A stretch of DNA of 64,000 nucleotides. Origin: Acidobacteriota bacterium (GTDB lineage: Bacteria; Acidobacteriota; Vicinamibacteria; Vicinamibacterales; UBA2999). Shown in pieces: positions 1 to 58,677 of the stretch (position 1 is the stretch's first letter; each line of letters opens with the position of its first letter). Both the position numbers and the translations under genes were made by a program. Below the pieces are notes generated by a model that was not told where the DNA came from, searched no databases, and saw nothing but the letters and a program-made list of their open reading frames with translations. The stretch spans positions 196,690 through 260,689 of the forward strand of contig VFZN01000002.1 of assembly GCA_016871195.1 (NCBI GenBank), in the 5' to 3' direction.

Positions 1-267
1 GCTGTCGGGCGAGGAGGTGAGCTGCAGCCGGTCAGTGCCGTCCCACTTCACCATCCAGATGTCGGTGTTGCGGCGATCCTTCTCGGCATCAATCGTCGTC
101 AGGGTGTAGGCCACCCACTGACCATCGGGCGAGCGCTGCGGGTCAGACACCGCCTGCAGGCGCGAGTGGTCGTCGATGGTGATGGCACGTCTGGCGGGCT
201 GCGCATGGGCCTGCGCCCCTGCGCAGAGCATCAGCGTCGTAACGGCGGCGTAACGGGTGCAGCGCAT
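1..267 (-). CDS. S9-family serine peptidase (prolyl oligopeptidase / dipeptidyl-peptidase type), N-terminal fragment; gene continues past the window edge
   Basis: Own translation of the minus strand from ATG 267: [89 protein letters not shown]. This is a signal peptide followed by the 'SPDG.W.AY' opening of the S9 beta-propeller. It is absent from the ORF track because it has no stop inside the window. Confidence 0.6.
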
Positions 268-273
268 GGCACC

Positions 274-279
274 AATATA
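274..279 (-). promoter_or_regulatory. -10-like hexamer TATATT, 6 nt upstream of the S9 peptidase ATG (leaderless-type promoter)
   Basis: The minus strand reads ATATATT-GGTGCC-ATG. No Shine-Dalgarno is present. This is an AT-only hexamer in GC-rich context. Confidence 0.45.
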
Positions 280-326
280 TGCGCGGGTGTAGACTGGCGC
301 GTCCTCTTTTTTCACGGAGTTGCCCG

Positions 327-2150: not shown

Positions 2151-3473
2151 TCAGGCGTGCCTCTCGTCGGAACCTGCGGCGGGCAGCCACAGGGTGGCGC
2201 GCGTGCCGTGTGCCGGTGTCGAGGCGAGACGCAGCACACCGCCCCATCGATCGGCGAAGGTGCGCGCCAGAAAGAGGCCCAGCCCGAATCCGCTGCCGAC
2301 CGGCTTGGTCGTGAAGAAAGGCTCTCCGGCCCTGGCCAGCACGTCCAGGGTCATGCCGCTGCCCTGATCAGAGACGTCGAAGCGTGTGCCGCGATTGTCT
2401 GCACTGGCGGAGACGATGACGCCCTGGCCGCTGGTCGAGGCGTCGAGCGCATTGCGCACCAGCGTGCGGAGCGCACGCGATGCCGATGCCAGCGGCACCG
2501 ACACAAGCGGCGCATCGGCCGACACACGCAGCGACACACGCGCAAGGGCCTCGTCTGTCAGGGTCAGCAGGGCCTCGTCCACCAGGTGCTGCGCCGATAT
2601 GCGCTGGGCCTCGTGCGCAACGGACGCATCGGCGCGACCGCTCATCTGGTCGAGAATTTCGCGGCAGCGTTCCACCTGCGAGCGAATCAGGCGGGCATCC
2701 TCGGCCAGCCCCGGAGGCACACCGGCCGCCGTCGCGGCGATATCGAGTTCGCGCGCGGCCACGGCGATGGCGCTCAGGGGCGTGGCCAGTTCATGGGCCG
2801 CGCCTGCCGCCAGCGTCGTGAGCGACGCCAGGCGCTCCTGCTGGGCCGCCACGCGCTGGGCCTCGGCCAGCGCCTGCTCACGCTCCTCGAGCGCCCGCCT
2901 GATGCGGGTCACAAACGCCGCCGTGAGAATGGCCGCCACCGCAAATGCCACCCCCATCCCGACCTGATGCCCGAGGTCGGGCCCCATGGCCCCGTGCGCC
3001 GCGTGCGGGTCGATGGTGGTGCGCAGCGGCGTGACGAAGAGCAGGCCATAGCCGACGGTCGACGCTGCCGCCGTGGCCCAGGCCCACCGCGCCGTGAGCG
3101 TCACCGCCGCCAGTGTGATGTACACGAGATAGCTGATGGTGAACGGATTGGAAGGCCCGCCCGTGGCCAGCATCAGCGCCGTCAGAATGCCCACATCAAG
3201 CAGCAGGCAGCCACCCATGCGTCCCTCGAGGGCCTCGCGCTCGTGCTGCTGACGCCAGAGCCACAGATTGCTGAGGAACTGGACGGCCAGCAGCGCCGCG
3301 ACCCAGCCCAGTGGCAGCAGCGCCGACAGCAGCCATGTCGAGGCCGTCAGCGCGACGACGGCCCCGGCGATGACCCACCAGCGGAACTGCACCAGCCAGG
3401 CGGCCGTGACGACGGGGGTGGCGAGCGGCAGAGGCACGACCCCATTGTGCGCGTCGTGGCTCCGGTTGCCCAT
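2151..3473 (-). CDS. regB: RegB/PrrB/ActS-family redox-sensing histidine kinase
   Basis: The multi-TM N-terminus contains GGPSNPF, which matches the RegB quinone-site heptapeptide GGXXNPF. The H-box is AAHELATPLSAI. A Cys 43 residues downstream (VERCREIL) matches the position of the RegB redox-active Cys. HATPase boxes are RNALDA, DQGSGM and GSGFGLGL. Confidence 0.85.
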   Translation of the reverse strand: MGNRSHDAHNGVVPLPLATPVVTAAWLVQFRWWVIAGAVVALTASTWLLSALLPLGWVAALLAVQFLSNLWLWRQQHEREALEGRMGGCLLLDVGILTALMLATGGPSNPFTISYLVYITLAAVTLTARWAWATAAASTVGYGLLFVTPLRTTIDPHAAHGAMGPDLGHQVGMGVAFAVAAILTAAFVTRIRRALEEREQALAEAQRVAAQQERLASLTTLAAGAAHELATPLSAIAVAARELDIAATAAGVPPGLAEDARLIRSQVERCREILDQMSGRADASVAHEAQRISAQHLVDEALLTLTDEALARVSLRVSADAPLVSVPLASASRALRTLVRNALDASTSGQGVIVSASADNRGTRFDVSDQGSGMTLDVLARAGEPFFTTKPVGSGFGLGLFLARTFADRWGGVLRLASTPAHGTRATLWLPAAGSDERHA

Positions 3474-3502
3474 GCGTCAAACTGCCGCAGGCCCGGCACC
3501 GC

Positions 3503-4915
3503 CTAGCGCGGCAGGCGTTCGGGCATCTCGGCGACGACGTAGGTCATCACCGCCAGCGCGGCCGCCGCCTTCGAGACATCCTCGGTCGGAATGCGCTCGA
3601 CGGTATCTGCCGGTGTGTGGTGAATGGTGAAGTACTTGGTCGAGTCGCCGCTGTAGGCCATCATCGGCACGCGGCCCGCCTCGGCGATGGGGCCGATATC
3701 GGCCCCGCCCCCGCCGGGCCCCACGTACTGCATGTCAATCGGTGCCAGCAGCGTCCCGATGTCGGCGATGATGCGCCGGGCCGACTCTGATCCGCTGAAG
3801 GCCAGACGGGCAGGCTGGAACACGCCCGAGTCTGACTCGATGGCCAGCACATGATCACCGGCGGCTTTCACATAGGCATCACGATAGGCCGTGCCTCCGC
3901 GCAATCCGTTTTCCTCATTGGTAAAGAGCACCAGCCGCACGGTGCGACGCGGTCTGATGCCCAGCGCCTTCATGAGCCGCAGGCTTTCCCACGTGACAAT
4001 GCATCCCACGGCGTCATCGGAGGCGCCCGTGGCGGCGTCCCACGAATCGAAGTGGCACCCGACCAGCACGATTTCATTCGGGCGCTCGCGTCCCGTCAGT
4101 TCGCCGATCACGTTGGCCGATTCCACATCAGGCTCGAAGTGCGCCTCCATCGTCAGGCGCACGCGCACGCGGCGCCCGCGGTCGATGATGCGGTGGATGC
4201 GCTGGGCGTCCTCGACGGAAATCGCCGCCGCCGGAATCTTCGGGGCATCGTCGCCGTACTGCATGCCGCCGGTATGCGGCGTCCGCAGGCCCATGGGCCC
4301 CACTGACCGCAGCAGCACACCCACGGCCCCGTGCTGCGCGGCGAGCCTGGCCCCGCCCGCGCGATAGACCACGGTCTCGCCATAGTTGGTGTAGGGCACA
4401 TCGAAGAGCACGATGCGTCCGCGGGCCTCGGCCGACCGGCGCTGCAGTTCGTCCTGGCTGCTGACCACCATGACGTCGGCCTCGAGCCCCTCGGGTCGCG
4501 TGGCCACCGACCCGCCCAGCCCCAGCAGCGGAAGGACGTGATGCGGCGGCTCGATGATTTCGAGCCGTTCCTGGCCGCGCACCCACTTGGGGCCCATGAC
4601 CCTTTCGGTGCGGACACCCTCGAACCCATCGGCGCGCATCGTGTCAGCCGCCCACACAATCGCCCGGGTCAGGTTGTCCGATCCGGTCAGGCGCGCCCCG
4701 TAGGTGTCGGTCAGCTCGGCCAGGCGGTTCCAGGCGAACTGATCGGCAGTCGCCGCTGTGATGAGGCGCTGGGCATCACGACGATAGGGCTGCAGCCAAG
4801 TCGGCCCGGCCTCCTGGGCCAGCGCGGGCAATTCGAGCACCGGTTCCGGCAGTGCCAGAGGCACAGCGGCCAGAGCGAGAAGCGCGAGGAGCACAAACGG
4901 TCGCAGGCGGGCCAT
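3503..4915 (-). CDS. Secreted M28-family aminopeptidase with PA (protease-associated) domain
   Basis: Signal peptide MARLRPFVLLALLALAAVP. M28 metal-ligand blocks are HFDSW..GASDDAVG, NEENGLRGG and HHTPADT. Confidence 0.85.
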   Translation of the reverse strand: MARLRPFVLLALLALAAVPLALPEPVLELPALAQEAGPTWLQPYRRDAQRLITAATADQFAWNRLAELTDTYGARLTGSDNLTRAIVWAADTMRADGFEGVRTERVMGPKWVRGQERLEIIEPPHHVLPLLGLGGSVATRPEGLEADVMVVSSQDELQRRSAEARGRIVLFDVPYTNYGETVVYRAGGARLAAQHGAVGVLLRSVGPMGLRTPHTGGMQYGDDAPKIPAAAISVEDAQRIHRIIDRGRRVRVRLTMEAHFEPDVESANVIGELTGRERPNEIVLVGCHFDSWDAATGASDDAVGCIVTWESLRLMKALGIRPRRTVRLVLFTNEENGLRGGTAYRDAYVKAAGDHVLAIESDSGVFQPARLAFSGSESARRIIADIGTLLAPIDMQYVGPGGGGADIGPIAEAGRVPMMAYSGDSTKYFTIHHTPADTVERIPTEDVSKAAAALAVMTYVVAEMPERLPR

Positions 4916-4923
4916 GAGCGCGG

Positions 4924-4931
4924 ATTATAAT
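4924..4931. promoter_or_regulatory. Palindromic ATTATAAT providing a perfect TATAAT -10 on both strands (M28 peptidase leftward, DUF454 gene rightward)
   Basis: The minus strand has TATAAT (4929->4924), then 8 nt, then ATG 4915. The plus strand has TATAAT (4926-4931), then 9 nt, then GTG 4941. This is the only all-A/T octamer in the neighbourhood. Confidence 0.5.
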
Positions 4932-4940
4932 CGGGGCGTC

Positions 4941-5327
4941 GTGACGCGGGCGCTGTATATCGGGCTGGGTCTCATCTCGGTGGGCCTGGCTGCCATCGGG
5001 GCCGTGCTGCCCGGAATGCCCACCACGGTGTTCCTGCTGCTTGCGCTGTGGGCGTTCTCGCGCTCGAGCCGCCATCTGCACGACTGGCTGCGTGCCGCCC
5101 CGCTCTTCCGCGACGCCATGACGCACGTCGACCGCTATCACGCCGAGCGCAGCATTACGCGCGGCGTGAAGGCCATCGCCGTCGGTGCGGCCTGGACCTC
5201 GGTGGCGGCCTTCTTTTACAGCCGCGGCCTCGAGCCCTCGGCGACGGCCGTCATCCTCGTGATGCTGGCCATGGCCTGCACCGTGTTCATGGCGCTCACG
5301 CGCACGGCCGACACGCGCCGCTCCTGA
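4941..5327 (+). CDS. ybaN: DUF454/YbaN-family inner-membrane protein
   Basis: ORF 4914..5327. The signature is GAVLPGMPTTVFLLLALWAFSRSSRHLHDWL. The start is moved to in-frame GTG 4941 because the TATAAT box lies downstream of ATG 4914. ATG 4914 remains an alternative. Confidence 0.7.
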   Translation: MTRALYIGLGLISVGLAAIGAVLPGMPTTVFLLLALWAFSRSSRHLHDWLRAAPLFRDAMTHVDRYHAERSITRGVKAIAVGAAWTSVAAFFYSRGLEPSATAVILVMLAMACTVFMALTRTADTRRS

Positions 5328-5503: not shown

Positions 5504-7777
5504 CTAGAAGCCCAGCGTGTAGACCACCCGGAAGGTGCGGCCGCGCTCGGGCACCATCTCCTTCAAATAGTTCAGGTGGTTACGGTAGAGCCGATCGGTC
5601 GCGTTCTCGAGGCGTGCCGTGATGGTGTTGAAGACGCGGCCCTGCACGAAGGAGTATGACGCGAAGAACCGCAGCATCGCATAGCCGTCTGTGGCGGTCT
5701 CCTCACCGAACACGCGGTTCTGGGCCGACGCGGTCACGATACTGCCGCCGGCCTGCAGGCTGGTGCCCTGATACTTGAGTCCAAAAATGCCGCGGGCCGG
5801 AGGAATGCGGGGCAGGGCCTCGTTGGTGTCCTTCAGCCGCCCCCGCACCATGTCGATGGTGAAATCGGCAATCCAGCGATCGGTGATTTTGAAGTCGCCG
5901 TGGGCCTCCATGCCCCAGAGGCGGCTGTCGCGGGCCACAAATTCAACGAAGGGCAGGCCTTCGCCGTGGCCGTGATGCCCCTCGTCGCCGTGGTCGTCCC
6001 CGTGGTCGTCAGACTCACCGTGGACCACACCGAAGCGGTCATCGAACTCCTCTTCGCGCTCCTCGAATTCCTCCTCGGAAATCGGGTTGCGGAAGATGTA
6101 GTTGGCAATGTCATTCGAGAAGAACGTGATTTCTCCCTCGAAACGGCCGCCGCGGGCGCGCAGCGAGACGTCGGCGCCCAGGGCCCGCTCGGCGTCGAGC
6201 GTCGGGTTTCCGATCTCATAGGCAAAGTTCCCGAGGTGGGGGCCGAAGAAGTACAGCTCCTCCATGGCCGGGGCCCGCGCCGCCCGCGCAAAGCTGGCCG
6301 CCAGGACCAGATTGTCGCGTGCAGCCGACGGACGCAGCAGCACGCCGGCCGACCCCGACCACTCGGTGAAGTCACGTGCCGGCAGCACGCCCTGCGGTTC
6401 GTAGGTGGTGCGGTCGACGCGACCGCCGAACTGGAAGGTGGCATGCGCGTTGCCCACTTCCTCATACACAAACGCTGCGGCATTGCGCTGCCCCACCGGC
6501 GGCGACAGCGCCTCGGCGCCACTCACGTTGAAGTCGCGCTGCATGAACCAGCCGCCCACGGTGCCGACGAGGTTGGCGGTCTTGCGGTGCGACAGCAGCA
6601 GTTCGCCCTCGACCGAGCGGTTCTGAAAGGTCGTGCCGACCTCGGTGCCTTCGAGTTCCTGATGCTCGTAGTCGCGGAAGCCGAACGTCGCGCGATACGA
6701 CTGAAAGAAGCCGTTCATCTGCGTGGCGCTGGCGCGTGCGCTCAGCGAGTGCCGGCGGGGCGTGAGGCTGACGTTGCCCTCTTCGATGAAGGGCACGCCA
6801 TACTTTATATCGGTGTAGCTGTAGCTCGCGCCGACATACTGGTTGTCGCCCGTCCATGATCCGCCCACGTTACCGGTGGCCAGAGACGACTGCGAGTTGG
6901 GCACCTTGCCCTCGGGCGTAAAGTAGCTGCCGCTGTCCTGACCGCTGCCGCCAGCCGTGAAGGCAAAGCGCCCGTTACCGACCGTGATGCCGGCCGCCGA
7001 GCCCACCTGATTGCCGTTGTTGGCCAGATCGAAATTGACCCGGCCCGTGGGCGCCGTCACCGGCTGCGTTGGAATCTGGTCGGTGACGACGTTGACCAGA
7101 CCGCCAATGGCGTTGGCGCCGTAGAGTAGCGTCGCAGGGCCACGCACCACTTCCACCCGCCGCGCCGCCGCGGGATTGATCGGCACGCCGTGGTCGGCCG
7201 ACTGGCTCGACAGGTCGCCCATGCGCTGACCGTCTTCCAGCACAATCACGCGGTCGCCATCGAGCCCGCGAATCACCGGGCGCGCGGGCGCGGCACCGAA
7301 CGCGCGTGTCGAGATACCGGGCGAATATTGCAGGGTGCCGGCAATCGTGGTTTCCTGCTGCTGAGCCAGATCCTGCCCGCCCAGCACGGTGGTCGGCTGG
7401 TAGGCCTCGAACTGCGGGCGCGGCGTCGGGCTCACAGACAGCACTTCCGCGAAATGAATGTCGAACTCGACGGCGATGTCCTGCACCGCAGGCGCGCTGC
7501 CGACCGTCACCTCGACCCGTCGGGTGGTCGAGCCGCCGGCGCGCACCCCGAGGTGATACTCGCCGGCAGGCACCCCCTCGAAGCGATACTGGCCAGTGGC
7601 ATCGGTGCGCGTCTCGCGGCGCAGTTCGTCAATAACCACCACCGCATTTGCCAGCGGCTGTCCGCCGTCGGCCTGCGTGATGGTGCCGCTGAGCGTCGTG
7701 CCGGTCTGCGCCATGGCCGCGCCGGAGCAAACGAGACTCAGCGTGAACAGTAGAATAGAGAGTGTTCGGACAAACAT
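5504..7777 (-). CDS. TonB-dependent outer-membrane receptor with N-terminal CarboxypepD_reg domain and a His/Asp-rich loop (candidate metal, zinc-type, receptor)
   Basis: Signal peptide MFVRTLSILLFTLSLVCSGAAMAQT. The CarboxypepD_reg block is GTITQADGGQPLANAVVVIDE...TDATGQYRFEGVPAGEYHL. The plug motif is PVIRGLDGDRVIVLEDG. The C-terminus ...FRVVYTLGF ends in a terminal aromatic residue. The insert is HGESDDHGDDHGDEGHHGHGEG. Confidence 0.88.
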   Translation of the reverse strand: MFVRTLSILLFTLSLVCSGAAMAQTGTTLSGTITQADGGQPLANAVVVIDELRRETRTDATGQYRFEGVPAGEYHLGVRAGGSTTRRVEVTVGSAPAVQDIAVEFDIHFAEVLSVSPTPRPQFEAYQPTTVLGGQDLAQQQETTIAGTLQYSPGISTRAFGAAPARPVIRGLDGDRVIVLEDGQRMGDLSSQSADHGVPINPAAARRVEVVRGPATLLYGANAIGGLVNVVTDQIPTQPVTAPTGRVNFDLANNGNQVGSAAGITVGNGRFAFTAGGSGQDSGSYFTPEGKVPNSQSSLATGNVGGSWTGDNQYVGASYSYTDIKYGVPFIEEGNVSLTPRRHSLSARASATQMNGFFQSYRATFGFRDYEHQELEGTEVGTTFQNRSVEGELLLSHRKTANLVGTVGGWFMQRDFNVSGAEALSPPVGQRNAAAFVYEEVGNAHATFQFGGRVDRTTYEPQGVLPARDFTEWSGSAGVLLRPSAARDNLVLAASFARAARAPAMEELYFFGPHLGNFAYEIGNPTLDAERALGADVSLRARGGRFEGEITFFSNDIANYIFRNPISEEEFEEREEEFDDRFGVVHGESDDHGDDHGDEGHHGHGEGLPFVEFVARDSRLWGMEAHGDFKITDRWIADFTIDMVRGRLKDTNEALPRIPPARGIFGLKYQGTSLQAGGSIVTASAQNRVFGEETATDGYAMLRFFASYSFVQGRVFNTITARLENATDRLYRNHLNYLKEMVPERGRTFRVVYTLGF

Positions 7778-7847
7778 AGTATTTCTAGTCTACCGGCGAC
7801 CGGGGGCCACTCAACAGGTCTGACCGATCAGCACCACGGAGATTTTC

Positions 7848-16225: not shown

Positions 16226-16248
16226 CCCCGCCGTGCTTTAATGCACGG

Positions 16249-43417: not shown

Positions 43418-43422
43418 CCGCT

Positions 43423-43434: not shown

Positions 43435-43440
43435 CGGCGC

Positions 43441-44412: not shown

Positions 44413-44417
44413 CGCGG

Positions 44418-45748: not shown

Positions 45749-45760
45749 TGTAGGTCGCAC

Positions 45761-45766
45761 TAGAAT
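45761..45766 (+). promoter_or_regulatory. -10-like TAGAAT, 6 nt upstream of the VWA gene ATG (leaderless-type)
   Basis: The sequence reads gcacTAGAATgcggatATG. The intergenic region is only 24 nt and has no SD. Confidence 0.5.
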
Positions 45767-45772
45767 GCGGAT

Positions 45773-47511: not shown

Positions 47512-47517
47512 GGCGTG

Positions 47518-47523
47518 ATTCTA
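47518..47523 (-). promoter_or_regulatory. -10-like TAGAAT, 6 nt upstream of ATG 47511 (leaderless-type)
   Basis: The minus strand reads ctggaTAGAATcacgccATG. Confidence 0.45.
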
Positions 47524-47550
47524 TCCAGACGCCGGGCGAAATCGCTCCGC

Positions 47551-47556
47551 TACAAT
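47551..47556 (+). promoter_or_regulatory. -10-like TACAAT, 6 nt upstream of the GGT ATG 47563 (leaderless-type)
   Basis: The sequence reads ccgcTACAATcgcggcATG. No SD is present. Confidence 0.5.
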
Positions 47557-47562
47557 CGCGGC

Positions 47563-49224
47563 ATGTCTCATCCGGCCTCTGGTGATCGCCCCGCCGGCAA
47601 CCCCGCATCGACACGGTCGCCCGCGGTGGGCCGCCACGGCATGATCGCCACCAGCCAGCCGCTGGCATCGGCCGCCGGGCTGCGCGTGCTGATGGAGGGC
47701 GGCACTGCCGTCGACGCCGCGGTCACCGCCGCTGCCGTGCTGGCCGTCGTCGAGCCCGCCATGAACGGCATCGGCGGCGACCTGTTCGCTCTCGTCTACG
47801 ACCCAGCCACCTCGGCGGTGTATGGCCTCGACTCGTGCGGCGCTGCCGGGCGGCTGGCCTCGGCCGGAACCCTCAGGGCCCAGGGCCTCACCGAGATGCC
47901 CGCAGGGGGGCCGCTCACGGTCACCGTGCCGGGTGTCGTCGACGGCTGGCACCATCTGCTGCAGCGCTTCGGGCAACGCACGCTCGCCGACGCCCTCGCA
48001 CCGGCCATCCGTCACGCCCACGACGGGTTCCCCGTGGCGGAACTGGCCGCCGCCGAGTGGGACGCCGCCGCCACGCGCCTCGCGGCCGACCCGGCGGCCG
48101 CGCGCACGTTCCTGCCCGGAGGACGTGCCCCTGTGCACGGTGCGCTCTTCAGCAACCCCGCACTGGGCCGCAGTCTGGAAGTCCTGGCTCGTGATGGCCG
48201 CGACGCCTTCTATCGGGGACCCCTCGCACACGCCATCGTCGACGACCTGCAGCAGCGTGGCGGACTGCTCACGGCCGAGGATTTCGCCGCGCACGCCGCC
48301 GCATGGGTCACGCCGCTCCGCGGCACCTATCGCGGCATCGACCTCTACGAGATGCCCCCGAGCACGCAGGGCTTCGTCGCCATCGAGATGCTGAACATCC
48401 TCGAGCACGACGACATCGCCGCACTGGGGCACGACAGTGCCGACTACCTGCACCTGCTCTGCGAAGCCAAGCAGATCGCGTTCGCCGATCGCACCGCATT
48501 CCTCGCTGATCGCCTCCGCATGCCGCCCGCGGTCCTCGAGCGCCTCGTCTCGAAGGCGTATGCCGCCGAACGCAGGCGTGACATCGACATGATGCAGGCA
48601 CGCACGCACGGCCCAGCGAGGGTCGCCGACATCGCCGGCCGTGCCCGTCCCGTGCGTGACTTCGCTGGCGAAGATCGGGGCGACACCGTGTATCTCACCG
48701 TGGCCGATGGCTCGGGCATGATGGTGTCGTTCATCCAGTCGATCTTCGCGTCGTTCGGGTCAGGCCTCGTCGCCGGAGACACAGGCATCACCCTGCACAA
48801 CCGCGGTTCTGGCTTCTCGCTTGAGGCCGGGCATCCCAATGAACTCGCACCCGGACAGCGCCCCCTGCACACGCTGGTGCCGGCCATGCTGGTGCGCGAC
48901 GGGGCCCCCTGGGTCACCTTCGGCGTCATGGGCGGCGACAATCAGGCGCAGGCCCATGTGCAGATCGTGGCCAACCTCGTCGACTTCGGCATGCACATCC
49001 AGCAGGCCGGTGATGCGGCCCGCCTGCGGGACCAGGGACACTCGGTCGCCATCGAACGCGGGGTGCCCGCCGAGGTGCGGCAGGCACTGGCCGCCCGGGG
49101 ACACCTGGTTGTCGACGGCCGCGGCCTGATGGGTGGCTATCAGGGCATCATGCGCGACTCGCACACGGGCGTGCTGCGGGGCGGGTCTGATCTGCGCAAG
49201 GACGGCCTGGCCATTGGCTTCTGA
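47563..49224 (+). CDS. ggt: Gamma-glutamyltransferase-family protein without signal peptide
   Basis: ORF 47227..49224, trimmed to ATG 47563, which removes the overlap with the divergent gene. Blocks are GMIATSQPLASAAGLRVLMEGGTAVDAAV, PAMNGIGGD and the autoprocessing/nucleophile block GDTVYLTVADGSG. Confidence 0.85.
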   Translation: MSHPASGDRPAGNPASTRSPAVGRHGMIATSQPLASAAGLRVLMEGGTAVDAAVTAAAVLAVVEPAMNGIGGDLFALVYDPATSAVYGLDSCGAAGRLASAGTLRAQGLTEMPAGGPLTVTVPGVVDGWHHLLQRFGQRTLADALAPAIRHAHDGFPVAELAAAEWDAAATRLAADPAAARTFLPGGRAPVHGALFSNPALGRSLEVLARDGRDAFYRGPLAHAIVDDLQQRGGLLTAEDFAAHAAAWVTPLRGTYRGIDLYEMPPSTQGFVAIEMLNILEHDDIAALGHDSADYLHLLCEAKQIAFADRTAFLADRLRMPPAVLERLVSKAYAAERRRDIDMMQARTHGPARVADIAGRARPVRDFAGEDRGDTVYLTVADGSGMMVSFIQSIFASFGSGLVAGDTGITLHNRGSGFSLEAGHPNELAPGQRPLHTLVPAMLVRDGAPWVTFGVMGGDNQAQAHVQIVANLVDFGMHIQQAGDAARLRDQGHSVAIERGVPAEVRQALAARGHLVVDGRGLMGGYQGIMRDSHTGVLRGGSDLRKDGLAIGF

Positions 49225-49279
49225 CCGGTCAGTCATATGATGAGGGCCATCTGGCGTACGTCGTCGAAGGGAGCCACTG

Positions 49280-49933
49280 ATGAATCGCATCGCACTCATG
49301 CTGGTGACAGGCGCACTGGTCGTTTCGGTCGCTTGTGGAAAGTCTGACGCCGAGAAGCAGGCGGAAGAGGCGGCCGCCAACCTCGAGAAGGCCAGTGAAG
49401 CCCTCTCAAAGGCCGCCGAGGGCAAGGGCTCGGCTGAAGACCTGGCCGAGGGCATGAAGGCCCTCACCGACGCCATGAACGGCGACGGCAAGACCGTCGA
49501 CCCGGTGTCGTTCCAGTCGCTCGAGGCCCTGCTGCCCAGCCTCTCCGGTTGGGAACGCGATACGCCACGCAGCGAGCGCATGACCTCGCCGGTGGCCTAC
49601 GCGCAGACCGAGGCCCATTACTCACGCGGTGATGCGTCGCTCGACATCACCATCACCGACTCGGGATTCGCGCAGGCCGTACTCGCCCCGTTTTCGATGA
49701 TGGCCATGATGGGGATGAACCGCGAATCGCGCGAGGGCTACGAGAAGGGCGTCACCCTGAAGGGTCAACCCGGCTTTGAGGAATGGCGCAACGAAAACCG
49801 TGACGGCGAACTCACCTTGCTCGTCGGCAAGCGGTTCCTCGTGGCCGTGAAGGGCAGCCAGTTGCCCGGGGCCGGCACCCTCCAGGACGCCGCCCGCGCC
49901 ATCGACTTCGGCAAGCTCGCCGCGCTGCAGTAA
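49280..49933 (+). CDS. Lipoprotein of unknown function
   Basis: GGGAG lies 8 nt upstream. The lipobox is LVVSVAC. There is an N-terminal helical Ala/Glu/Lys-rich segment. I recognised no family motif. Confidence 0.6.
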   Translation: MNRIALMLVTGALVVSVACGKSDAEKQAEEAAANLEKASEALSKAAEGKGSAEDLAEGMKALTDAMNGDGKTVDPVSFQSLEALLPSLSGWERDTPRSERMTSPVAYAQTEAHYSRGDASLDITITDSGFAQAVLAPFSMMAMMGMNRESREGYEKGVTLKGQPGFEEWRNENRDGELTLLVGKRFLVAVKGSQLPGAGTLQDAARAIDFGKLAALQ

Positions 49934-49943
49934 GTCGGCGCCG

Positions 49944-50942
49944 CTAGATCTGGAAGCCCGACCGCAACGGGTCGTCGGCGTCCAGCACAAACGTGTGCAT
50001 CCCGGTCATCCAGGCCTCACCCTCGATGACCGGGATCACCGCCGTGCGCTCCTCCATCCGCTGCAGCCCCGCCACCCGGCCGGTCAGTGTGAGTCCGAGC
50101 AGCGATTCCTGCACAAACGGCTGATCGTCAAGCAGCAGCCCCATCTCGGTCAGCACCGCCATCACGGCGGCCGTGGCCGTGCCACTCGCCGTGCGATCCA
50201 CCTGACCATCACTGCCCACCGCCACGCTCCGCAGGTGCGCATCACCCGTCGCCGGCCCGGTGAACACGGTCCCCGCCACGCCCGCCAGGTGCTCGTGCTG
50301 CGGATGCTGCACCCGCCGCAGCGCCGACACCTCGGCCGCAATCGCCACGCCCATGCGCCGCAGATCGTCGAGCCGATCGGGTCTGAGCGGAATGCCCACC
50401 GCCTCGGCATCCACCACCGCATGGAAGACCCCGCCGAACGCCAGATCGGCCCGCACGGTGCGCTCCTGTACCACCACGGGCACGCCGGCCTCCCACACAA
50501 ACGCGGGCACACCGGTGACACGCACCTGCGCCCCCTGTGCCGGTCCGCTGCCGTGAGACACATCCACGTCGGCCGTCACCCGGCCCGCCACCGTATCGAA
50601 GCGCCACGTGCTGATGTCACCACGCAGCAGGCCCTCACCAACGGCCAGCGCCGCCACGGCCATCAGTGCCTGCAGGTTGAGGGCCGGCCATCCACTGCCG
50701 TGCATGAACAGCACCCCGGCATGGCCATCCTCCGATGCCGCGTCGGTCAGCATCGCCCCCCACAGGTCGCGATGCCCCCGGGGCTCGCGCATCAGCGCCA
50801 GCCGATAGTGATCGAGCCGCCGCTCGGCCCACGCCTGCCGCTCGTGCATGCGCCGCCCCTGCGGGGCCGGCAACCCGTCGACCACGAGCCGAAGCGGCCC
50901 GCCGGCCACATGCGCATCCAGCGTCCGGAACGTATGAGTCAC
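49944..50942 (-). CDS. Proline racemase / 4-hydroxyproline epimerase superfamily protein, apparently lacking both catalytic Cys residues
   Basis: This is the C-terminal half of ORF 49944..51845. The start is set at GTG 50942 (GATAAT 6 nt upstream): (M)THTFRTLDAHVAGGPLRLVVDG.... Family blocks are GVLFMHGSGWPALNLQAL (versus GV.FfN..Gyl.MCGHgtI) and VDRTASGTATAA (versus DRSPCGTGTSA). Confidence 0.72.
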   Translation of the reverse strand: MTHTFRTLDAHVAGGPLRLVVDGLPAPQGRRMHERQAWAERRLDHYRLALMREPRGHRDLWGAMLTDAASEDGHAGVLFMHGSGWPALNLQALMAVAALAVGEGLLRGDISTWRFDTVAGRVTADVDVSHGSGPAQGAQVRVTGVPAFVWEAGVPVVVQERTVRADLAFGGVFHAVVDAEAVGIPLRPDRLDDLRRMGVAIAAEVSALRRVQHPQHEHLAGVAGTVFTGPATGDAHLRSVAVGSDGQVDRTASGTATAAVMAVLTEMGLLLDDQPFVQESLLGLTLTGRVAGLQRMEERTAVIPVIEGEAWMTGMHTFVLDADDPLRSGFQI

Positions 50943-50948
50943 CGCGGC

Positions 50949-50954
50949 ATTATC
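50949..50954 (-). promoter_or_regulatory. -10-like GATAAT, 6 nt upstream of GTG 50942 (leaderless-type)
   Basis: The minus strand reads ctGATAATgccgcgGTG. Confidence 0.4.
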
Positions 50955-50984
50955 AGTCAGGCCGTGGTGTACGCTGTGGGCGGC

Positions 50985-51914
50985 GTGCGCGCGTTCTATT
51001 CCGATCATTTCGTCCTGCCGCTGCCCGAGGGCCACCGCTTTCCGATGGCCAAGTATTCGGGGCTGCGCCAGCGCATCCTCGACAACGGCATCCTTCCGCG
51101 CACCGCCCTGCACGAGGCCCCGGCCGCCTCCTGGGATGACCTCCGGCTCGTGCACACACCCGCCTACGTCGACGCCGTGGCCACCGGCACCGTGGCCCCC
51201 GACATCCAGCGCCGCATCGGCTTTCCGTGGACGCCCGGCATGGTCGAGCGTTCGCGCCGCTCGGTCGGTGCCACCATCGCCGCCACGCAGGCGGCGCTCG
51301 ATGACGGCCTCGCCGCCAATCTCGCGGGGGGCACACATCATGCGTTTGCCGATCGCGGCGAAGGCTACTGCGTCTTCAACGACGTGGCGGTCGCCGCACG
51401 CGTGCTGCTGCGCGACTCTGCCCTCTCGCGCGTCGCCATCGTCGACTGCGATGTGCACCAGGGCAACGGCACCGCGGCCATCTTCCACCACGACCCGTCC
51501 GTGTTCACCTTCTCGATGCACGGCGCGACCAACTTTCCCTTCCGGAAGGAAGAGAGCGATCTCGATATCGCCCTGCCGGATGGCACGGGCGACGATGCGT
51601 ATCTGACGCTGCTTGAGACGCACCTGGCGCAGGTGCTCGACAGCCATCAGCCCGAGTGCGTGTACTATCTCGCCGGCGCCGATCCCTACGAAGGTGACCG
51701 CCTCGGCAAATTGAAACTCACGATCGCCGGCCTGCGTCGCCGCGACGACATCGTGCTGCAGCGGTGCCACGCCCTCGGCATTCCGACGGTCATCACCATG
51801 AGCGGCGGCTATGCCTATGACATCGACGCCATCGTCACGATTCACGCGGCCACCATCGAGGTGGCGGCCCGTCTCTCCGGAGTCTTGCCATGTCCCAGTC
51901 GTTCCGCCTGCTGA
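50985..51914 (+). CDS. Histone-deacetylase-family (class II HDAC / acetylpolyamine-amidohydrolase-like) zinc deacetylase
   Basis: This is the C-terminal half of ORF 49995..51914. The start is set at GTG 50985 ((M)RAFYSDHFVLPLPEGHRFPMAKY, a typical family N-terminus). Alternative GTGs are at 50964, 50967 and 50976. Catalytic blocks are GGTHHAFADRGEGYCVFND, VDCDVHQGNG, GADPYEGD and SGGY. Confidence 0.8.
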   Translation: MRAFYSDHFVLPLPEGHRFPMAKYSGLRQRILDNGILPRTALHEAPAASWDDLRLVHTPAYVDAVATGTVAPDIQRRIGFPWTPGMVERSRRSVGATIAATQAALDDGLAANLAGGTHHAFADRGEGYCVFNDVAVAARVLLRDSALSRVAIVDCDVHQGNGTAAIFHHDPSVFTFSMHGATNFPFRKEESDLDIALPDGTGDDAYLTLLETHLAQVLDSHQPECVYYLAGADPYEGDRLGKLKLTIAGLRRRDDIVLQRCHALGIPTVITMSGGYAYDIDAIVTIHAATIEVAARLSGVLPCPSRSAC

Positions 51915-52879
51915 ATGAAGCCGAAGTCGCTTCGCTGCTCTCGATGGGCGAGCTCATCGGCGTGATGGAAAGTGCGCTGGCGCGCTTCTCGGCCGGTGAT
52001 GTGCTGCAGCCGGTGCGCACCGTGCTGTCTGTCGGTCCGACGAAGGCGTTCTTCGGCGTGATGCCCGCCTACCTGCCCGACCCCGGCCGCATGGGCGCCA
52101 AGCTGGTGACGGTGTTCAACGGCAACGAGGCCCGCGGATTGCCCTCGCACCTGGCGACCATCCTGCTGCTCGACGCCGAGACCGGGGCCCTGTGCGGCAT
52201 CCTCGATGGCCGGTTCATCACCGAAGCGCGCACCGCTGCCGTATCCGCCGTCTCGGCGCGTCACCTGTCGCGCGTCGAGGCCTCGACACTCGCCATCCTT
52301 GGCACCGGCGTGCAGGCACGCAGCCACCTCGAGGCCCTGAAGGAAGTGCGCGGCCTCAAGGACATCCGGGTGTGGTCGCCCCGTCTCACGAGCCGTGAAC
52401 GCTTTGTGGAAGAGATGGCCCCGCACGTCACCGGCACGCTGCGGGCCACGCGTCATGCCGAGCAGGCGGTCGAAGGCGTCGACCTCATCGTGCTGGCGAC
52501 CTCGTCACCGACACCGGTCATCGAAAATGGCTGGGTGAGCGACGGCGCGCACATCATGTCCGTCGGGGCCTGCCGTCCCGACCAGCGCGAGATGGACCCG
52601 CGCCTCGTGGCCCGCGCCGAACTCTATGTCGACTCGAAGGCGGCCGCGCTCGTCGAGTCGGGCGACGTCGTCATGGGTATCAGGGAAGGCCGCTTCGGCG
52701 AGGCACACCTGCGGGGAGAACTCGGCGAGGTGGTGCTGCGCCGCGTGCATGCCCGCACGTCGCACGATCAGGTCACCATCTTCAAGTCGCTCGGCATGGC
52801 CGTCGAGGACGTGGCCGCAGCCGGCCTCGTGCTCGACCGCGCACACGAGCGTGGCATCGGCCAGTGGCTCGAGATCTGA
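51890..52879 (+). CDS. Ornithine cyclodeaminase / mu-crystallin family protein (candidate delta1-pyrroline-2-carboxylate reductase or cyclodeaminase)
   Basis: The opening is MSQSFRLLNEAEVASLLSMGELIGVMESAL. The Rossmann block is LAILGTGVQARSHLEAL. The gene overlaps the HDAC-like 3' end by 25 nt. Confidence 0.8.
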   Translation: MSQSFRLLNEAEVASLLSMGELIGVMESALARFSAGDVLQPVRTVLSVGPTKAFFGVMPAYLPDPGRMGAKLVTVFNGNEARGLPSHLATILLLDAETGALCGILDGRFITEARTAAVSAVSARHLSRVEASTLAILGTGVQARSHLEALKEVRGLKDIRVWSPRLTSRERFVEEMAPHVTGTLRATRHAEQAVEGVDLIVLATSSPTPVIENGWVSDGAHIMSVGACRPDQREMDPRLVARAELYVDSKAAALVESGDVVMGIREGRFGEAHLRGELGEVVLRRVHARTSHDQVTIFKSLGMAVEDVAAAGLVLDRAHERGIGQWLEI

Positions 52880-55480: not shown

Positions 55481-56644
55481 CTATGCGCCCGCGGCCGTCA
55501 GGCCGCCAGCCTTGCGGAATGCCTGCAGGTCGGCTGCGGAAATCGACACGGCCACCAGCGCCGGGTTGCTCCCGCCGCGCGCATCACGTTCGGGATCGAC
55601 TCCGCGGGCCGCGCCCGAGCCGGTCACCTGCGCCTGCGATTTTTCGCCGCCGCTGCCGGGCATCATGCGGCCCAGCCCGAAGCTGCGGCGCCTGGGCTCG
55701 TCCTTCTTCGCCTTGTCGTCTGCCGGGGCCGGCGCCGGTGCAGCCTTGCTGTCGCTGCCGGTCAGGCCGGCGGCACCGGCATCAACGGTGGCAATGTCGG
55801 AAAGGGGCTTCGGGGTGTAGGTGATGGCCTGGCGATAGCGCTCTGACAGCGTCACCGTGCCCGTCAGCTTCTGCTTCGTGATGGTGCCGGCAATGCCATC
55901 GAGGCGCGACTGCATGTCGGGATGCGAGGCGAACAGCCCACGCCGTTCCCTGGACGAGGCGTTGCGCTCCTTGAGGCGTGCGAGGATCGTGCCGAGCGCC
56001 GCGGGCTGATAGCCGACGCGACTGATGAGGGCCACGCCTGCCGCATCAGATTCGCGCTCGTCCTCGCGCCCGAATCCACGCTCGACAATCGACTCGTAGG
56101 TCGCGGCGACCACCCGATCGAGCAGCGCCGCGTTGCCAGAGAGAGTTTCCGAGGCCCCCATCTGCACGGCCTTCGTCTTCTGCATCGACCGGATGGTGTG
56201 CTTTCCGGTGATGTGCACAATCTCGTGCGCCAGCACGCCCGCCAGTTCGGCCTCGTCCTGCATCAGCGCCAGCGCGCCGCGTGTGATGTGCACATATCCG
56301 CCGGGCGCCGCAAAGGCGTTGACGCCGTCTGTGTCGAGCACGATGAACGTCCACGGCAGCGCCGGACGGCTGCTGGCGGCGGCGATGGTGCGGCCGACGA
56401 GGGACACATAGCGATGCACGGGCGCACTCTGCACCACGCCGTAGCGCTCGCGGATGCGCGCGCTGACATCCTGCCCCAGCTGCTGCTCCTCGGCGTCGGT
56501 CACCTGCAGGTCGCGCAGTTCACCGACCTTCTTCACGCCCTCGGTGACTTTGCCCAGCTGGCCGAGCTGTCCGGCCCCGGCCTCGACGCCCGACAGGGTG
56601 ATCAGCAGGGCCACCACGGTCATTCCCGTTCGACTGACTCTCAT
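55481..56644 (-). CDS. Secreted M48-family zinc metallopeptidase with low-complexity Ala/Pro/Lys linker and short C-terminal module
   Basis: The protein has a signal/anchor. The HEXXH is LAHEIVHITGKH and the downstream ligand region is ERESD. Its start overlaps the cyclase stop (ATGA). Confidence 0.8.
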   Translation of the reverse strand: MRVSRTGMTVVALLITLSGVEAGAGQLGQLGKVTEGVKKVGELRDLQVTDAEEQQLGQDVSARIRERYGVVQSAPVHRYVSLVGRTIAAASSRPALPWTFIVLDTDGVNAFAAPGGYVHITRGALALMQDEAELAGVLAHEIVHITGKHTIRSMQKTKAVQMGASETLSGNAALLDRVVAATYESIVERGFGREDERESDAAGVALISRVGYQPAALGTILARLKERNASSRERRGLFASHPDMQSRLDGIAGTITKQKLTGTVTLSERYRQAITYTPKPLSDIATVDAGAAGLTGSDSKAAPAPAPADDKAKKDEPRRRSFGLGRMMPGSGGEKSQAQVTGSGAARGVDPERDARGGSNPALVAVSISAADLQAFRKAGGLTAAGA

Positions 56645-58665
56645 GCGCGCACCTCGAAAATCTCCGCGGGCTGCGTCTTGCCCTTCACGGTCACCGTCCC
56701 CAGCGGCCGCACATCGTACTGTCCCCGCAGCAGGGCCCGTGTCGCCTCGCTGATGATGATACGCGTACCATACTCCTTGTTGAGCGACTCGAGGCGCGCC
56801 CCCAAGTTGACCGCGTCGCCGATGACCGTGTAGCTCATCACCTGATCCGATCCGATGTTCCCGGCGACCATCTCGCCGCTGTTGATGCCGATGCCGATGT
56901 CGAACGGCGGCGCCCCCCGGGTGGCGCGCTCGGCATTGAGGGCTGCCAGCGCCCGCACCATCGCCAGCGCCGTCTGCACCGCGTGGTCGGCGTGGGCCTC
57001 GTCATCGACCGGCGCGCCGTAGAGCGCCATCACCATGTCACCGACAAACTTGTCGAGCGTCCCCTGGTGGGCAAACACGAGCGCCACCATGCGCGTGAAA
57101 TAGTCGTTGAGCTGCGCCACCATCGCCTCGGGCGACTCGCGTTCGGTCAGGCTGGTAAACCCGCGCATGTCCGAAAACAGCACCGTCATGAACCGCCGCG
57201 TGCCGCCGAGCTGCGCCAGCTGCGGCGCCTCGAGCAGTTGCTGGTAGACCGCCTTCGACACATAGCGCGAGAAGAGACGCGTCACCTTCCGTCGCTCGCG
57301 CCCTTCGACCACATAGTGCCAGCCGAGATCGCCGACAAACGCCAGCCCCAGCGCCGCCAGCGGCATCACCATCGGCCACCACACACCACCGCCGAAGGTG
57401 ACGACCGTGCCCCACACCCACGCGCCGCCGGTCACCAGGGCCACGGCCCCGGCCACCCACACGGTCGACAGGGCCCCCACCACCGACACCAGCAGCGTCA
57501 GGGCCACCATGGCCCCGAGGGCCTGCCAGCGCGGGGCCTGCACCAGCTGGCGCCCGCCGAGCATCGCGTCGATGGTCTGCGCATGCACCTCGGGGCCGGC
57601 CATCTTCCCTTCGGTGAATGGGGTGGTGAACACATCGTGCAGCCCCTGGGCCGTCACGCCCACCACCACCACCTTGTCGCGGAACTGCGCAGGCGCCACA
57701 GACGGCGTCACTCCTTCCATCAGCTCCTGTTGCGCAAGAAACAGGTCATAGAACGACTGCCTCGGCAACGCCGCAGTGCCATCCGAGCCGACGGCAGCGG
57801 CGGCCCAGGGCAGCAGCGCCCGGCAGGTCGTGCGCACCGTGCCATCCGGTTCCTCGAGGCGACCGGCCATCAGCGGCCAGTCAAGGGCCCCCGCGCGCAG
57901 GTGCGTCGGCGAGGCAGTGAGGTCACGTCCGGTCAGGCCTTGTGCCAGCAGCACCGCGGCCAGCGGCAGCGAGGGCAGCACCACTGGCCCACCGCCGGGA
58001 CGCTCGACGCTCACGAGCGGCACCACGCGCCGCAGCGGACCGTCGGCGTCGTAGACCATCAGGCTGTGGCCCACGCCCGCCGATGCCTGCGCCAGCTCGG
58101 GAAACGGCAGCACGGTCTGCGGACGTCCTTCGACACAGGCCGTGTGTCCGAGCCGGGCCGTGCGGTCGGGCAGCACCGACACATCCACCGGCAGCGCCCG
58201 CGCGGCATCGCGCGCCCCGCTGCTGGCTGCCTCGGCGGCATGCACGACCATACCCGCCGCCCGGGTCGAGTCGACGAGTGCCTGGTCCGATTCCTGACCC
58301 GTCCACTCGGTCTCACCGACCATGAACGTGCGCCGGTCCCCTTCCGCAAACAGCACGTCGTAGACGACCGCCCGCGCCCCCGCGGCCGCCAGATAGTCGA
58401 CGACGAGCGCATGCACCAGGCGCGGCCATGGCCAGCGGCCCACCAGTGGCTCCATGCGCCGCAGGCTCTCATCGTCAATGGCGACGACGATGACGGGTGA
58501 CGAGGGGCTGAGGCGATCCGCCGTCGTCTGTCGTACGCGCCAGTCGTAGGTCTTGAGCTCGATGGTGTCGGCGAAGCCTGTCAGACTCAGCCCGGCCGCC
58601 ACGAGGGACGCGGCCAGGGCGAGCAGCAGCCGTGGCGCAAGGCGAGTGAGTCGACCAGCGGGCAT
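56641..58665 (-). CDS. CHASE2-domain membrane sensor fused to a class III adenylate/guanylate cyclase
   Basis: ORF 56641..58686 (GTG). I prefer ATG 58665 (GATAAT 6 nt upstream) or 58668. The CHASE2 opening is TGFADTIELKTYDWRVR, followed by TM helices. The cyclase core is VTVLFSDMRGFTSLTE...FVGDMVMALYGAP...GINSGEMVAGNIGS...YTVIGDAVNLGARLE. Confidence 0.85.
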   Translation of the reverse strand: MPAGRLTRLAPRLLLALAASLVAAGLSLTGFADTIELKTYDWRVRQTTADRLSPSSPVIVVAIDDESLRRMEPLVGRWPWPRLVHALVVDYLAAAGARAVVYDVLFAEGDRRTFMVGETEWTGQESDQALVDSTRAAGMVVHAAEAASSGARDAARALPVDVSVLPDRTARLGHTACVEGRPQTVLPFPELAQASAGVGHSLMVYDADGPLRRVVPLVSVERPGGGPVVLPSLPLAAVLLAQGLTGRDLTASPTHLRAGALDWPLMAGRLEEPDGTVRTTCRALLPWAAAAVGSDGTAALPRQSFYDLFLAQQELMEGVTPSVAPAQFRDKVVVVGVTAQGLHDVFTTPFTEGKMAGPEVHAQTIDAMLGGRQLVQAPRWQALGAMVALTLLVSVVGALSTVWVAGAVALVTGGAWVWGTVVTFGGGVWWPMVMPLAALGLAFVGDLGWHYVVEGRERRKVTRLFSRYVSKAVYQQLLEAPQLAQLGGTRRFMTVLFSDMRGFTSLTERESPEAMVAQLNDYFTRMVALVFAHQGTLDKFVGDMVMALYGAPVDDEAHADHAVQTALAMVRALAALNAERATRGAPPFDIGIGINSGEMVAGNIGSDQVMSYTVIGDAVNLGARLESLNKEYGTRIIISEATRALLRGQYDVRPLGTVTVKGKTQPAEIFEVRA

Positions 58666-58671
58666 CATGGG

Positions 58672-58677
58672 ATTATC
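58672..58677 (-). promoter_or_regulatory. -10-like GATAAT immediately upstream of the tandem ATG-ATG of the cyclase gene
   Basis: The minus strand reads cgcGATAATcccATGATG. The spacing is 3 nt to the first ATG and 6 nt to the second. Confidence 0.4.

Follow-up and report, generated by a model that had tools for sequence, protein, structure and literature searches.

A −10-like hexamer at a fixed distance from start codons points to leaderless transcription in Vicinamibacterales-like Acidobacteriota

We analyzed a stretch of 64 kb of DNA from an Acidobacteriota bacterium (contig VFZN01000002.1, positions 196,690 to 260,689; hereafter, the window), in which an A/T-rich hexamer of the form TANNNT recurs a few nucleotides (nt) upstream of start codons. 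The motif and its position were observed directly in the window and its relatives, as were its enrichment, its specificity for the lineage, its mutual exclusion with Shine–Dalgarno (SD) sites, and its conservation in orthologues. Most likely, the hexamers serve as −10-only promoters of the sigma-70 type, which would start transcription on the first base of the start codon and yield leaderless mRNAs. Both the position of the transcription start and the mode of translation are what we infer from these observations.

A hexamer at a fixed distance from start codons

The window has a guanine-plus-cytosine (GC) content of 66–69% throughout its 64 kb and encodes approximately 47 genes. According to Pfam, their products include peptidases (three M28, M19, M14, M20, and M48), TonB-dependent receptors with CarboxypepD_reg domains, two-component systems, and transporters. 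The best named homologues of the window proteins are labeled 'Vicinamibacterales bacterium' or 'Acidobacteria bacterium' (58–76% identity), and these named matches are our basis for placing the lineage as Vicinamibacterales-like. Metagenome contigs with 93–98% identity to window proteins were found as well. A metagenome scan with the M19 dipeptidase delivered a related set of 80 loci (625 kb, 62–71% GC). A scan of genome contigs with the gamma-glutamyltranspeptidase (GGT) protein retrieved mostly distant phyla, with a Vicinamibacterales metagenome-assembled genome as the best match (58% identity). It supplied the loci for the negative control, namely 477 kb of Proteobacteria loci with a GC content of at least 60%, which were subjected to the same procedure. 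Scans against Rfam and for tRNAs gave no matches, and no known RNA element was detected in the intergenic regions of the window.

The first-pass annotation of the window had listed 18 strings of hexamer, spacer, and start codon, 15 of them as main sites, and had called the hexamers conspicuous in DNA of such high GC content. All 18 strings matched the sequence exactly with respect to hexamer, spacer length, start codon, and strand. Thirteen are strict TANNNT with spacers of six to nine nucleotides (N6–N9; starts at 267, 4915, 4941, 10018, 13627, 30354, 43417, 43441, 45773, 47511, 47563, 7777, and 30446), and the site at 21385 is TANNNT at N10. The other four deviate at hexamer position 1 or 2 (TTTAAT at 16249, GATCAT at 25996, GATAAT at 50942 and 58665). 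Among the 15 main sites, 12 have a spacer of N6–N7, and 11 are strict TANNNT. A nineteenth site, TACGCT-N9-GTG50985 on the plus strand, had been missed. The hexamers are indeed conspicuous: the window contains just 146 TANNNT on both strands together, and TANNNT-N6-[AG]TG occurs only 10 times in 128 kb of strand sequence, seven times at gene starts that had already been listed. When all in-frame starts were taken into account, nine window genes carried TANNNT at N6–N7 before a candidate start, compared with zero to two genes for each of five control spacer pairs. The SD sites that had been quoted as examples at other genes are real as well (327, GGAG-N7; 7848, GGAG-N6; 13061, AGGAGG; 21586, GGAGG-N5; 34762, AGGAG-N7; 41386, AGGAG-N6; 42740, AGGAGG-N6).

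A gene-model-free scan covered 578 kb of related contigs, with the close relatives of the window left out. For each downstream offset, it counted TANNNT hexamers followed by an ATG or GTG that opened an open reading frame (ORF) of at least 100 codons with a positive codon-bias score. We obtained 61 hexamers at spacer 6, 39 at spacer 7, and 15–26 at spacers 8–10, compared with approximately 10 elsewhere. For the narrower TAN[AC]AT, 70 of 158 hexamers had a coding start at N6–N10, and the N6 count was 33 against a background of about 1.5. The second sample consisted of 96 single-start genes, in which only one start codon is available after the upstream stop and before coding bias sets in (nine from the window, the others from relatives). 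Here, TANNNT was found 15, 4, 4, and 5 times at N6, N7, N8, and N9, respectively, versus 0.5 per bin elsewhere (Poisson p ~ 1e-17 for the N6 peak). The peak was retained with TA[CT]NNT, a form of the hexamer free of stop codons; it is therefore not an artifact of ORF boundaries or in-frame stops. The Proteobacteria control, by contrast, was flat, with 11 hexamers at N6 versus approximately 10 elsewhere and a coding start behind only one of 163 TAN[AC]AT hexamers. Since the enrichment occurs in the relatives and not in high-GC Proteobacteria, the signal is specific to the lineage. The search for positional enrichment that the first-pass annotation had proposed as a check thus yielded, on about 0.6 Mb of related contigs, a sharp peak at spacers 6–7 over a flat background, which confirms a lineage-specific signal far above chance.

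The proposed anticorrelation with SD sites was borne out by the single-start genes. An SD core, scored at 4–12 nt before the start, was present in none of the 28 motif genes but in 14 of the 68 others (Fisher p = 0.009), with a peak of the SD spacer at 5–7 nt. Overall, 28 of the 96 genes (29%) carry the motif and 14 an SD core. The remaining 54 lack both, so that translation on leaders must in any case be able to start independently of an SD.

The logo of 82 sites from the relatives reads TAnaAT, with A at frequencies of 0.49 and 0.63 at positions 4 and 5. A modest preference for G (0.50) is seen two bases upstream of the hexamer, C reaches 0.60 at the sixth base after it, which corresponds to −1 at N6 sites, and no information was found anywhere in the −35 region. 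The start codons at these sites are ATG (67) and GTG (15). In a de novo base profile upstream of the 96 single starts, the frequencies were 0.47 for A at −11, 0.32 for T at −12, 0.29 for T at −7, and 0.46 for C at −1. In the window, a pyrimidine occupies −1 at 14 of the 18 sites (p = 0.015). RNA polymerase usually prefers to start on a purine that directly follows a pyrimidine. A scan of positions 42000–52000 for two-hexamer sigma-70 promoters found none of the eight motif sites located there. Because the scan misses the sites and the logo contains no −35 element, we rejected a canonical two-hexamer promoter (−35 TTGACA, 17 bp, −10 TATAAT).

Conservation was examined among orthologues of the M19 dipeptidase gene and in syntenic relatives. 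In approximately 35 of about 50 M19 loci (61–98% identity), a −10-like hexamer stands 6–8 nt before the ATG of a Met-Arg N-terminus, and the upstream DNA and the neighboring genes of these loci are unrelated. The hexamers include TACAAT, TATCAT, TAAGCT, TAAGAT, TATAGT, and TTTAAT; three orthologues (L123, L128, and L150) carry an AGGAG-type SD in place of the hexamer. The comparison with six syntenic relatives (L081, L085, L162, L165, L169, and L171) revealed that hexamer and spacing are kept amid diverged flanks at 13 window sites (10018, 13627, 16249, 21385, 30354, 30446, 43417, 43441, 45773, 47511, 47563, 50942, and 50985). The same hexamers occur upstream of genes with a leader. At the M20 peptidase gene on the minus strand (42738–42768), TAGAAT (42763–42768) lies 22 nt before ATG42740, which AGGAGG precedes by 6 nt, and GTAGTAGAAT together with the SD is kept in L165 and L169. 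At an M28 peptidase gene on the plus strand (27761–27787), CATAAT lies 18 nt before ATG27785, which has GGAG-N7; L162 has GATAAT followed by GGAG with identical spacing. Hexamers of the TAGAAT/CATAAT type are thus kept approximately 20 nt upstream of SD-led genes, as would be expected for a promoter, not for a site that binds ribosomes. Gene 42740 would show the same −10 type in use as an ordinary promoter.

Sites in the window, their start codons, and compact divergent pairs

In the first-pass annotation, the motif had served to choose among alternative starts for five genes (4941, 30354, 47563, 50942, and 58665). All five choices are backed by Pfam coverage, homologue N-termini, or the DNA of relatives, with 30354 favored but not settled. 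More generally, the protein N-termini agree with the proposed starts, as judged from Pfam coverage, the lengths and N-termini of homologues, and signal peptides beginning at the proposed Met or Val; in 11 cases, the proposed N-terminus resembles a signal peptide right from its first residues.

At the left end of the window, TATATT (274–279) stands at N6 before ATG267 (265–279, minus strand; string matched). The gene encodes a secreted protein that runs off the window; its N-terminus is signal-peptide-like, and in-frame GTGs upstream make the start less certain. TATAAT (4924–4929) precedes ATG4915 at N8 (4913–4929, minus strand) and forms half of the palindrome GATTATAATC. This ATG is the sole start codon after the upstream stop of an M28 peptidase gene, and the N-terminus of the product is a signal peptide. 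On the plus strand, TATAAT (4926–4931) precedes GTG4941 at N9 (4926–4943) and overlaps the opposite-strand hexamer by 4 bp; read from GTG4941, positions 1–111 of Pfam DUF454 align to residues 3–119 of the product. TAGACT (7787–7792) at N9 before ATG7777 (7775–7792, minus strand), a weaker case, belongs to a TonB-dependent receptor gene divergent from the SD-led gene 7848 on the plus strand. No orthologue of it was recovered among the relatives examined. Two plus-strand sites follow. TACCAT-N7-ATG10018 (10005–10020) is the sole candidate start of a PD40 beta-propeller protein gene and reads TACGAT-N7-ATG between diverged flanks in L081. TAGAAT-N6-GTG13627 (13615–13629), upstream of a LytS-type histidine kinase gene, is kept in L081 despite an extra gene inserted upstream.

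The gene for the M19 membrane dipeptidase starts at TTTAAT-N6-ATG16249 (16237–16251, plus strand), 23 nt after a same-strand stop; its homologues have 419–424 amino acids (aa) and begin with MR, and the length agrees. The hexamer lies in the loop of a hairpin, CCGTGC-TTTAAT-GCACGG (16231–16248), with a perfect 6-bp stem. This hairpin is located between the stop codon of a LytTR response regulator gene and ATG16249; it is kept in relatives with 93–98% identity and missing in distant orthologues, and it might modulate read-through or promoter access. As the distant orthologues keep the −10 hexamer at N6–N8 without the hairpin, we rejected a terminator or translation structure as the main feature of this site. 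Other elements were seen next to starts in relatives. In L110, L115, and L102, TGACATTCGACAAGAG-N10-CTCTTGTCG stands directly before the ATG of an orthologous gene as a 9-bp hairpin abutting the start codon. Its stems in L102 show compensatory-looking differences (CGACAGGAG/CTCTTGTCG), and the element does not occur in the window. Short tandem repeats lie directly upstream of the −10 hexamer or start in L088, L091, L102, L107, L146, L149, and L171, with units that include GCCTTTT, GGGATCC/GTCCGGGATCC, CTCTGAC, and GCCGTCTGCCGGTT; the window contains no comparable intergenic repeat arrays.

TAAGCT (21396–21401) at N10 before ATG21385 (21383–21401, minus strand) is a weaker case upstream of an M14 carboxypeptidase gene. 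It is kept as TAAGCT-N10-ATG in L085, and the transcript would likely have a leader of 3–4 nt. GATCAT-N6-ATG25996 (25984–25998, plus strand) is a non-TANNNT site of a beta-lactamase-family gene. The protein has 543 aa and the called gene in L162 has 544 aa; the L162 upstream sequence was not recovered. Close by, the gene for an MFS transporter (ATG25894, minus strand; 25892–25914) has [GC]ATAAT 14 nt before its ATG and no SD, and L085 and L162 share this arrangement. A leader of approximately 7 nt is suggested, which would make the transcript neither leaderless nor SD-led. TATCAT (30361–30366) stands at N6 before GTG30354 (30352–30366, minus strand; conserved hypothetical secreted protein), and the plus strand carries TAAGAT-N9-GTG30446 (30431–30448; MatE transporter; weaker case), which is kept as GATAAGATGGAAGGCT[CT]GTG in L162. 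The claim that the motif genes lack SD sites agrees with the count of zero in 28, with two caveats in the window, namely the rival SD-led start GTG30381 for 30354 and a partial SD-like GGAAGG at 30446.

In the right half of the window, TACAAT (43424–43429) at N6 before ATG43417 (43415–43429, minus strand; DUF2721 protein) faces TACAAT-N7-ATG43441 (43428–43443, plus strand), the sole candidate start of a zinc-type alcohol dehydrogenase (ADH). The 43417 site is kept in L165 and reads TAATCT-N6 in L169 and TATCCT-N6 in L171; the orthologues comprise 187–194 aa with 99–100% coverage, and the length agrees. The ADH site is likewise kept in L165; in L171, it reads TACAAT-N6, and the intergenic spacer, of 56 nt, is a different one. 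TAGAAT-N6-ATG45773 (45761–45775, plus strand; VWA-domain protein) is TAGAAT-N6 in L165, TAAGAT-N6 in L169, and TAAAAT-N6 in L171, all with diverged flanks. TAGAAT (47518–47523) at N6 before ATG47511 (47509–47523, minus strand), which opens the gene of an unknown protein with a twin-arginine-like N-terminus, corresponds to TAGAAT-N6-ATG in L171 and TAGAAT-N7-ATG in L165. At the GGT gene, TACAAT-N6-ATG47563 (47551–47565, plus strand), CTCCGCTACAATCGCG-N-ATG is kept in L165, where an extra gene replaced everything upstream of −18; this conservation backs the start. The last site, GATAAT (58672–58677) at N6 before ATG58665 and N3 before ATG58668 (58663–58677, minus strand), belongs to a CHASE2 adenylate/guanylate cyclase, whose CHASE2 coverage begins at residue 20.

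GATAAT (50949–50954) at N6 before GTG50942 (50940–50954, minus strand; proline-racemase-family protein) is divergent from TACGCT-N9-GTG50985 (50970–50987, plus strand; histone-deacetylase-family protein). Position 2 of Pfam Pro_racemase aligns seven residues past GTG50942, and the Pfam histone-deacetylase domain begins approximately 17 residues past GTG50985. The former site is GATAAT-N6-GTG in L165 and GATAAT-N7-ATG in L171. The latter is TACGCT-N7 in L171, with the same called N-terminus VRAFYS, and TACGCT-N9 with a diverged spacer in L165. ORFs of approximately 630 aa with good codon bias cover both strands of the same 2 kb (49944–51953). Pfam resolved this antisense pair into a proline-racemase family gene at 49944–50942 (minus strand) and a histone-deacetylase family gene at 50985–51914 (plus strand), so that half of each ORF is real; the pair is a typical shadow-ORF trap of high-GC DNA.

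Two divergent pairs are extremely compact. The hexamers 43424–43429 (minus strand) and 43428–43433 (plus strand) share TA, and their start codons are 24 bp apart; the hexamers 4924–4929 (minus strand) and 4926–4931 (plus strand) overlap by 4 bp, with start codons 26 bp apart. The sequences GATTGTACAATC (43422–43433) and GATTATAATC (4923–4932) are perfect palindromes of 10–12 bp centred between the divergent starts, and GATTGTACAATC is identical in L165. We would regard such pairs as ultra-compact bidirectional leaderless promoters, to which two polymerases could not bind simultaneously. Divergent pairs 24–28 bp apart recur at unrelated genes of the relatives (L088:4328–4352, L128:4313–4341 and 15266–15293, L115:1585–1613, L146:7313–7341). 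The back-to-back pairs of relatives have different, non-palindromic hexamers, for example ATTGTATAGAAT.

A separate observation concerns the Fe/Mn superoxide dismutase encoded at 327–1040. Read from the SD-led ATG327, the protein has an N-terminal extension of approximately 50 residues resembling a twin-arginine export signal; the enzyme would then be exported.

Proposed mechanism and alternative explanations

According to our model, region 2 of a housekeeping sigma-70-family sigma factor would recognize TAnaAT, with A−11 and T−7 as critical bases and a dispensable −35 hexamer. RNA polymerase would melt the DNA and initiate 6–7 nt past the hexamer, with the A of ATG or G of GTG as the first nucleotide, usually after C−1. 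The mRNA would begin with 5′-AUG or 5′-GUG and would for this reason lack an SD, and ribosome and initiator tRNA would bind directly to the 5′-terminal start codon. At N8–N10 sites, the transcript would probably have a leader of 1–4 nt, and operon-internal genes as well as genes with longer leaders would use GGAG-type SD sites instead. In divergent pairs, −10 boxes that touch or share bases within a short palindrome (ATTGTACAAT, ATTATAAT) would form a bidirectional promoter, with start codons 24–28 bp apart.

Alternatively, transcription could begin farther upstream, and the hexamer would then lie in the 5′ leader and serve as a non-SD ribosome-binding site, either unstructured or bound by S1, similar to 'group B' of Bacteroidota. 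We consider this unlikely. It would accommodate both the motif before 12% of closely following genes, such as 10018 and 16249, and the 54 of 96 genes without a clear SD or a −10 motif. However, the conserved positions are the invariants of the sigma-70 −10 element, T−12, A−11, and T−7, not a general A/T richness; the spacing peak is 1–2 nt wide and located at the canonical distance between −10 element and transcription start, and the C at −1 before a purine agrees with the rule of start selection. Moreover, group-B motifs do not distinguish first from internal genes (PMC6028130), whereas the motif here occurs only half as often at genes that closely follow another. Also speaking against a leader element are the hexamers kept approximately 20 nt before the SD of genes with a leader, and the GGT gene of L165, which retains hexamer and start although all DNA upstream of −18 was replaced. 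A further possibility is that A/T-richer intergenic DNA, combined with a free choice of start codons, produced the pattern by chance. The motif itself had been used to pick five starts, and in-frame TAG or TAA within hexamers can set ORF boundaries. Yet the single-start genes give the same peak (p ~ 1e-17), which persists with the stop-free TA[CT]NNT hexamers; control spacers and high-GC Proteobacteria are flat, and hexamer and spacing are kept in orthologues. Chance, to which we attach next to no probability, is thereby excluded.

For the divergent pairs alone, the palindromes GATTGTACAATC and GATTATAATC could primarily be operators of a dimeric transcription factor, their likeness to −10 elements being secondary. 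Both are perfect and centred between divergent starts, and GATTGTACAATC is identical in L165. On the other hand, the ADH gene of L171 keeps TACAAT-N6-ATG without the palindrome, in its 56-nt spacer, and unrelated pairs in relatives stand back to back with non-palindromic hexamers such as ATTGTATAGAAT. Pseudo-symmetric −10 elements are, in addition, a known source of bidirectional promoters (PMC12825309). A primary operator role therefore seems very unlikely to us, and the operator and promoter readings of the palindromes are not mutually exclusive.

Several points weigh against start-codon-proximal promoters as the general explanation. The N8–N10 spacers at 4915, 4941, 7777, 21385, 30446, and 50985 place the usual transcription start off the start codon. 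The relaxed hexamers [ACG]AN[AC]AT and T[CGT]NAAT, which cover the GATAAT, GATCAT, and TTTAAT sites of the first-pass annotation, show no positional enrichment as a class. For these sites, the evidence is orthologue conservation alone at 16249 and 50942, with nothing further at 25996 and 58665. The share of genes preceded by TANNNT at N6–N7 is 24% for divergent genes and 25% where the distance to a preceding same-strand gene is 60 nt or more, but also 12% where this distance is shorter (controls, 2–8%). The motif is enriched at the starts of transcription units yet not confined to them, and the 12% require internal promoters or else a role independent of transcription. Along the same lines, the description of the motif genes as first in their units is assumed for 10018 and 16249, because a same-strand gene ends 45 nt and 23 nt upstream, respectively. 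The gene sets were called by an in-house codon-bias gene finder and do not represent a validated annotation, and a literature search on Acidobacteria found no mapped transcription starts or 5′-end data for these genes or the phylum. Finally, the gene at 30354 has a good SD-led alternative in frame, GTG30381 with GAGGAGG-N5, and its 98%-identical homologue P0121 is called from the 30381 position. L162, a relative with approximately 90% identity, has TATGAT-N6-GTG at 30354 and lacks the GAGGAGG of the rival start, and the N-termini of distant homologues (MRA/MRS) align to 30354. GTG30381 is therefore disfavored; 30354 is favored as the true start, and the choice is not settled.

Significance and comparison with known systems

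Members of the Vicinamibacteria are among the most abundant uncultured bacteria in soil and freshwater, and their genes are known almost exclusively from automatic calls on metagenomes. We lean towards regarding Vicinamibacterales-like Acidobacteriota as a third major leaderless lineage, in which approximately 30% of genes would be expressed from −35-less promoters, GTG messages and compact bidirectional pairs included. If this is true, RNA polymerase and ribosomes would be adapted at the level of the lineage, and starts would be systematically misannotated in the abundant soil and freshwater metagenome bins of the group. If a third of the genes is leaderless, SD-based gene callers consequently misplace many starts. 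The close relative L165 (NCBI GCA_964643765.1) illustrates this: its automatic calls at 2313–3914, 503–1594, and 5892–6734 conflict with the starts that the −10 hexamers support. The call for GGT lacks 20 codons, that for the proline-racemase-family gene is 31 codons too long (363 aa), and one called start is an ATG that overlaps the TAGAAT box. Such errors affect the prediction of signal peptides, localization, and domains. The lineage would also add Gram-negative non-extremophiles to the debate on why some phyla favor leaderless expression, and TAnaAT-N6-ATG would offer a minimal promoter rule for the engineering of group members.

The compact pairs resemble known bidirectional promoters, which arise from pseudo-symmetric −10 elements and commonly have divergent starts 10, 18, or 23 bp apart (Warman et al., 2021, as summarized in PMC12825309). 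In both cases, −10 hexamers on opposite strands overlap or abut, and ATTGTACAAT predicts starts 24 bp apart here. The symmetric −10 arrangement is seen in our pairs in its sequence geometry only. They differ in that both transcripts would be leaderless, with start codons 24–28 bp apart and essentially no other intergenic DNA.

For Actinobacteria and Deinococcus-Thermus, leaderless mRNAs and TANNNT next to the ORF are well established, and GeneMarkS-2 models them as 'group C' (PMC6028130). The main text of that paper names these two phyla as rich in group C and does not mention Acidobacteria, and the MetaGeneMark-2 preprint does not mention the phylum either. As in Actinobacteria (Mycobacterium, Streptomyces, and Corynebacterium), where it marks first genes, TANNNT stands 6–8 nt from start codons, SD sites are found at other genes, both ATG and GTG serve as start codons, a quarter to half of the transcripts are predicted to be leaderless, and the GC content is high. 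In group C, the 3′ end of TANNNT lies about 6–8 nt before the start; the peak of our lineage is at N6, followed by N7. The difference is that we are dealing with Gram-negative, Vicinamibacterales-like Acidobacteriota known from sequence alone.

With Deinococcus-Thermus, the lineage shares TANNNT, its strict spacing from the ORF, and the coexistence of GGAG ribosome-binding sites (PMC12340547; de Groot et al., 2014, as cited there). Approximately 30% of ORFs carry the motif there (PMC12340547) and 29% (28/96) here, two estimates that are not directly comparable. For Deinococcus radiodurans, promoter function and the spacing requirement of the motif were shown by mutation and reporter assays (PMC12340547), whereas our case is built on sequence statistics and conservation.

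Within the phylum, Zheng et al. (2011) predicted TA-led, i.e., leaderless, genes in all three Acidobacteria genomes then available, amounting to 9.7–19.4% of genes (PMC3160421, Table 2). The in silico signature is the same, with TANNNT approximately 10–12 bp upstream of the translation start (PMC3160421); the proportion differs from the approximately 29% found here, a comparison that is indicative only, since the methods are not comparable. The first-pass remark that leaderless mRNAs are not a described hallmark of the lineage was therefore too strong and only partly right; on the Vicinamibacteria, we found no statement. The mechanism is not new; its extension to Vicinamibacterales, at approximately 30% of genes, is.

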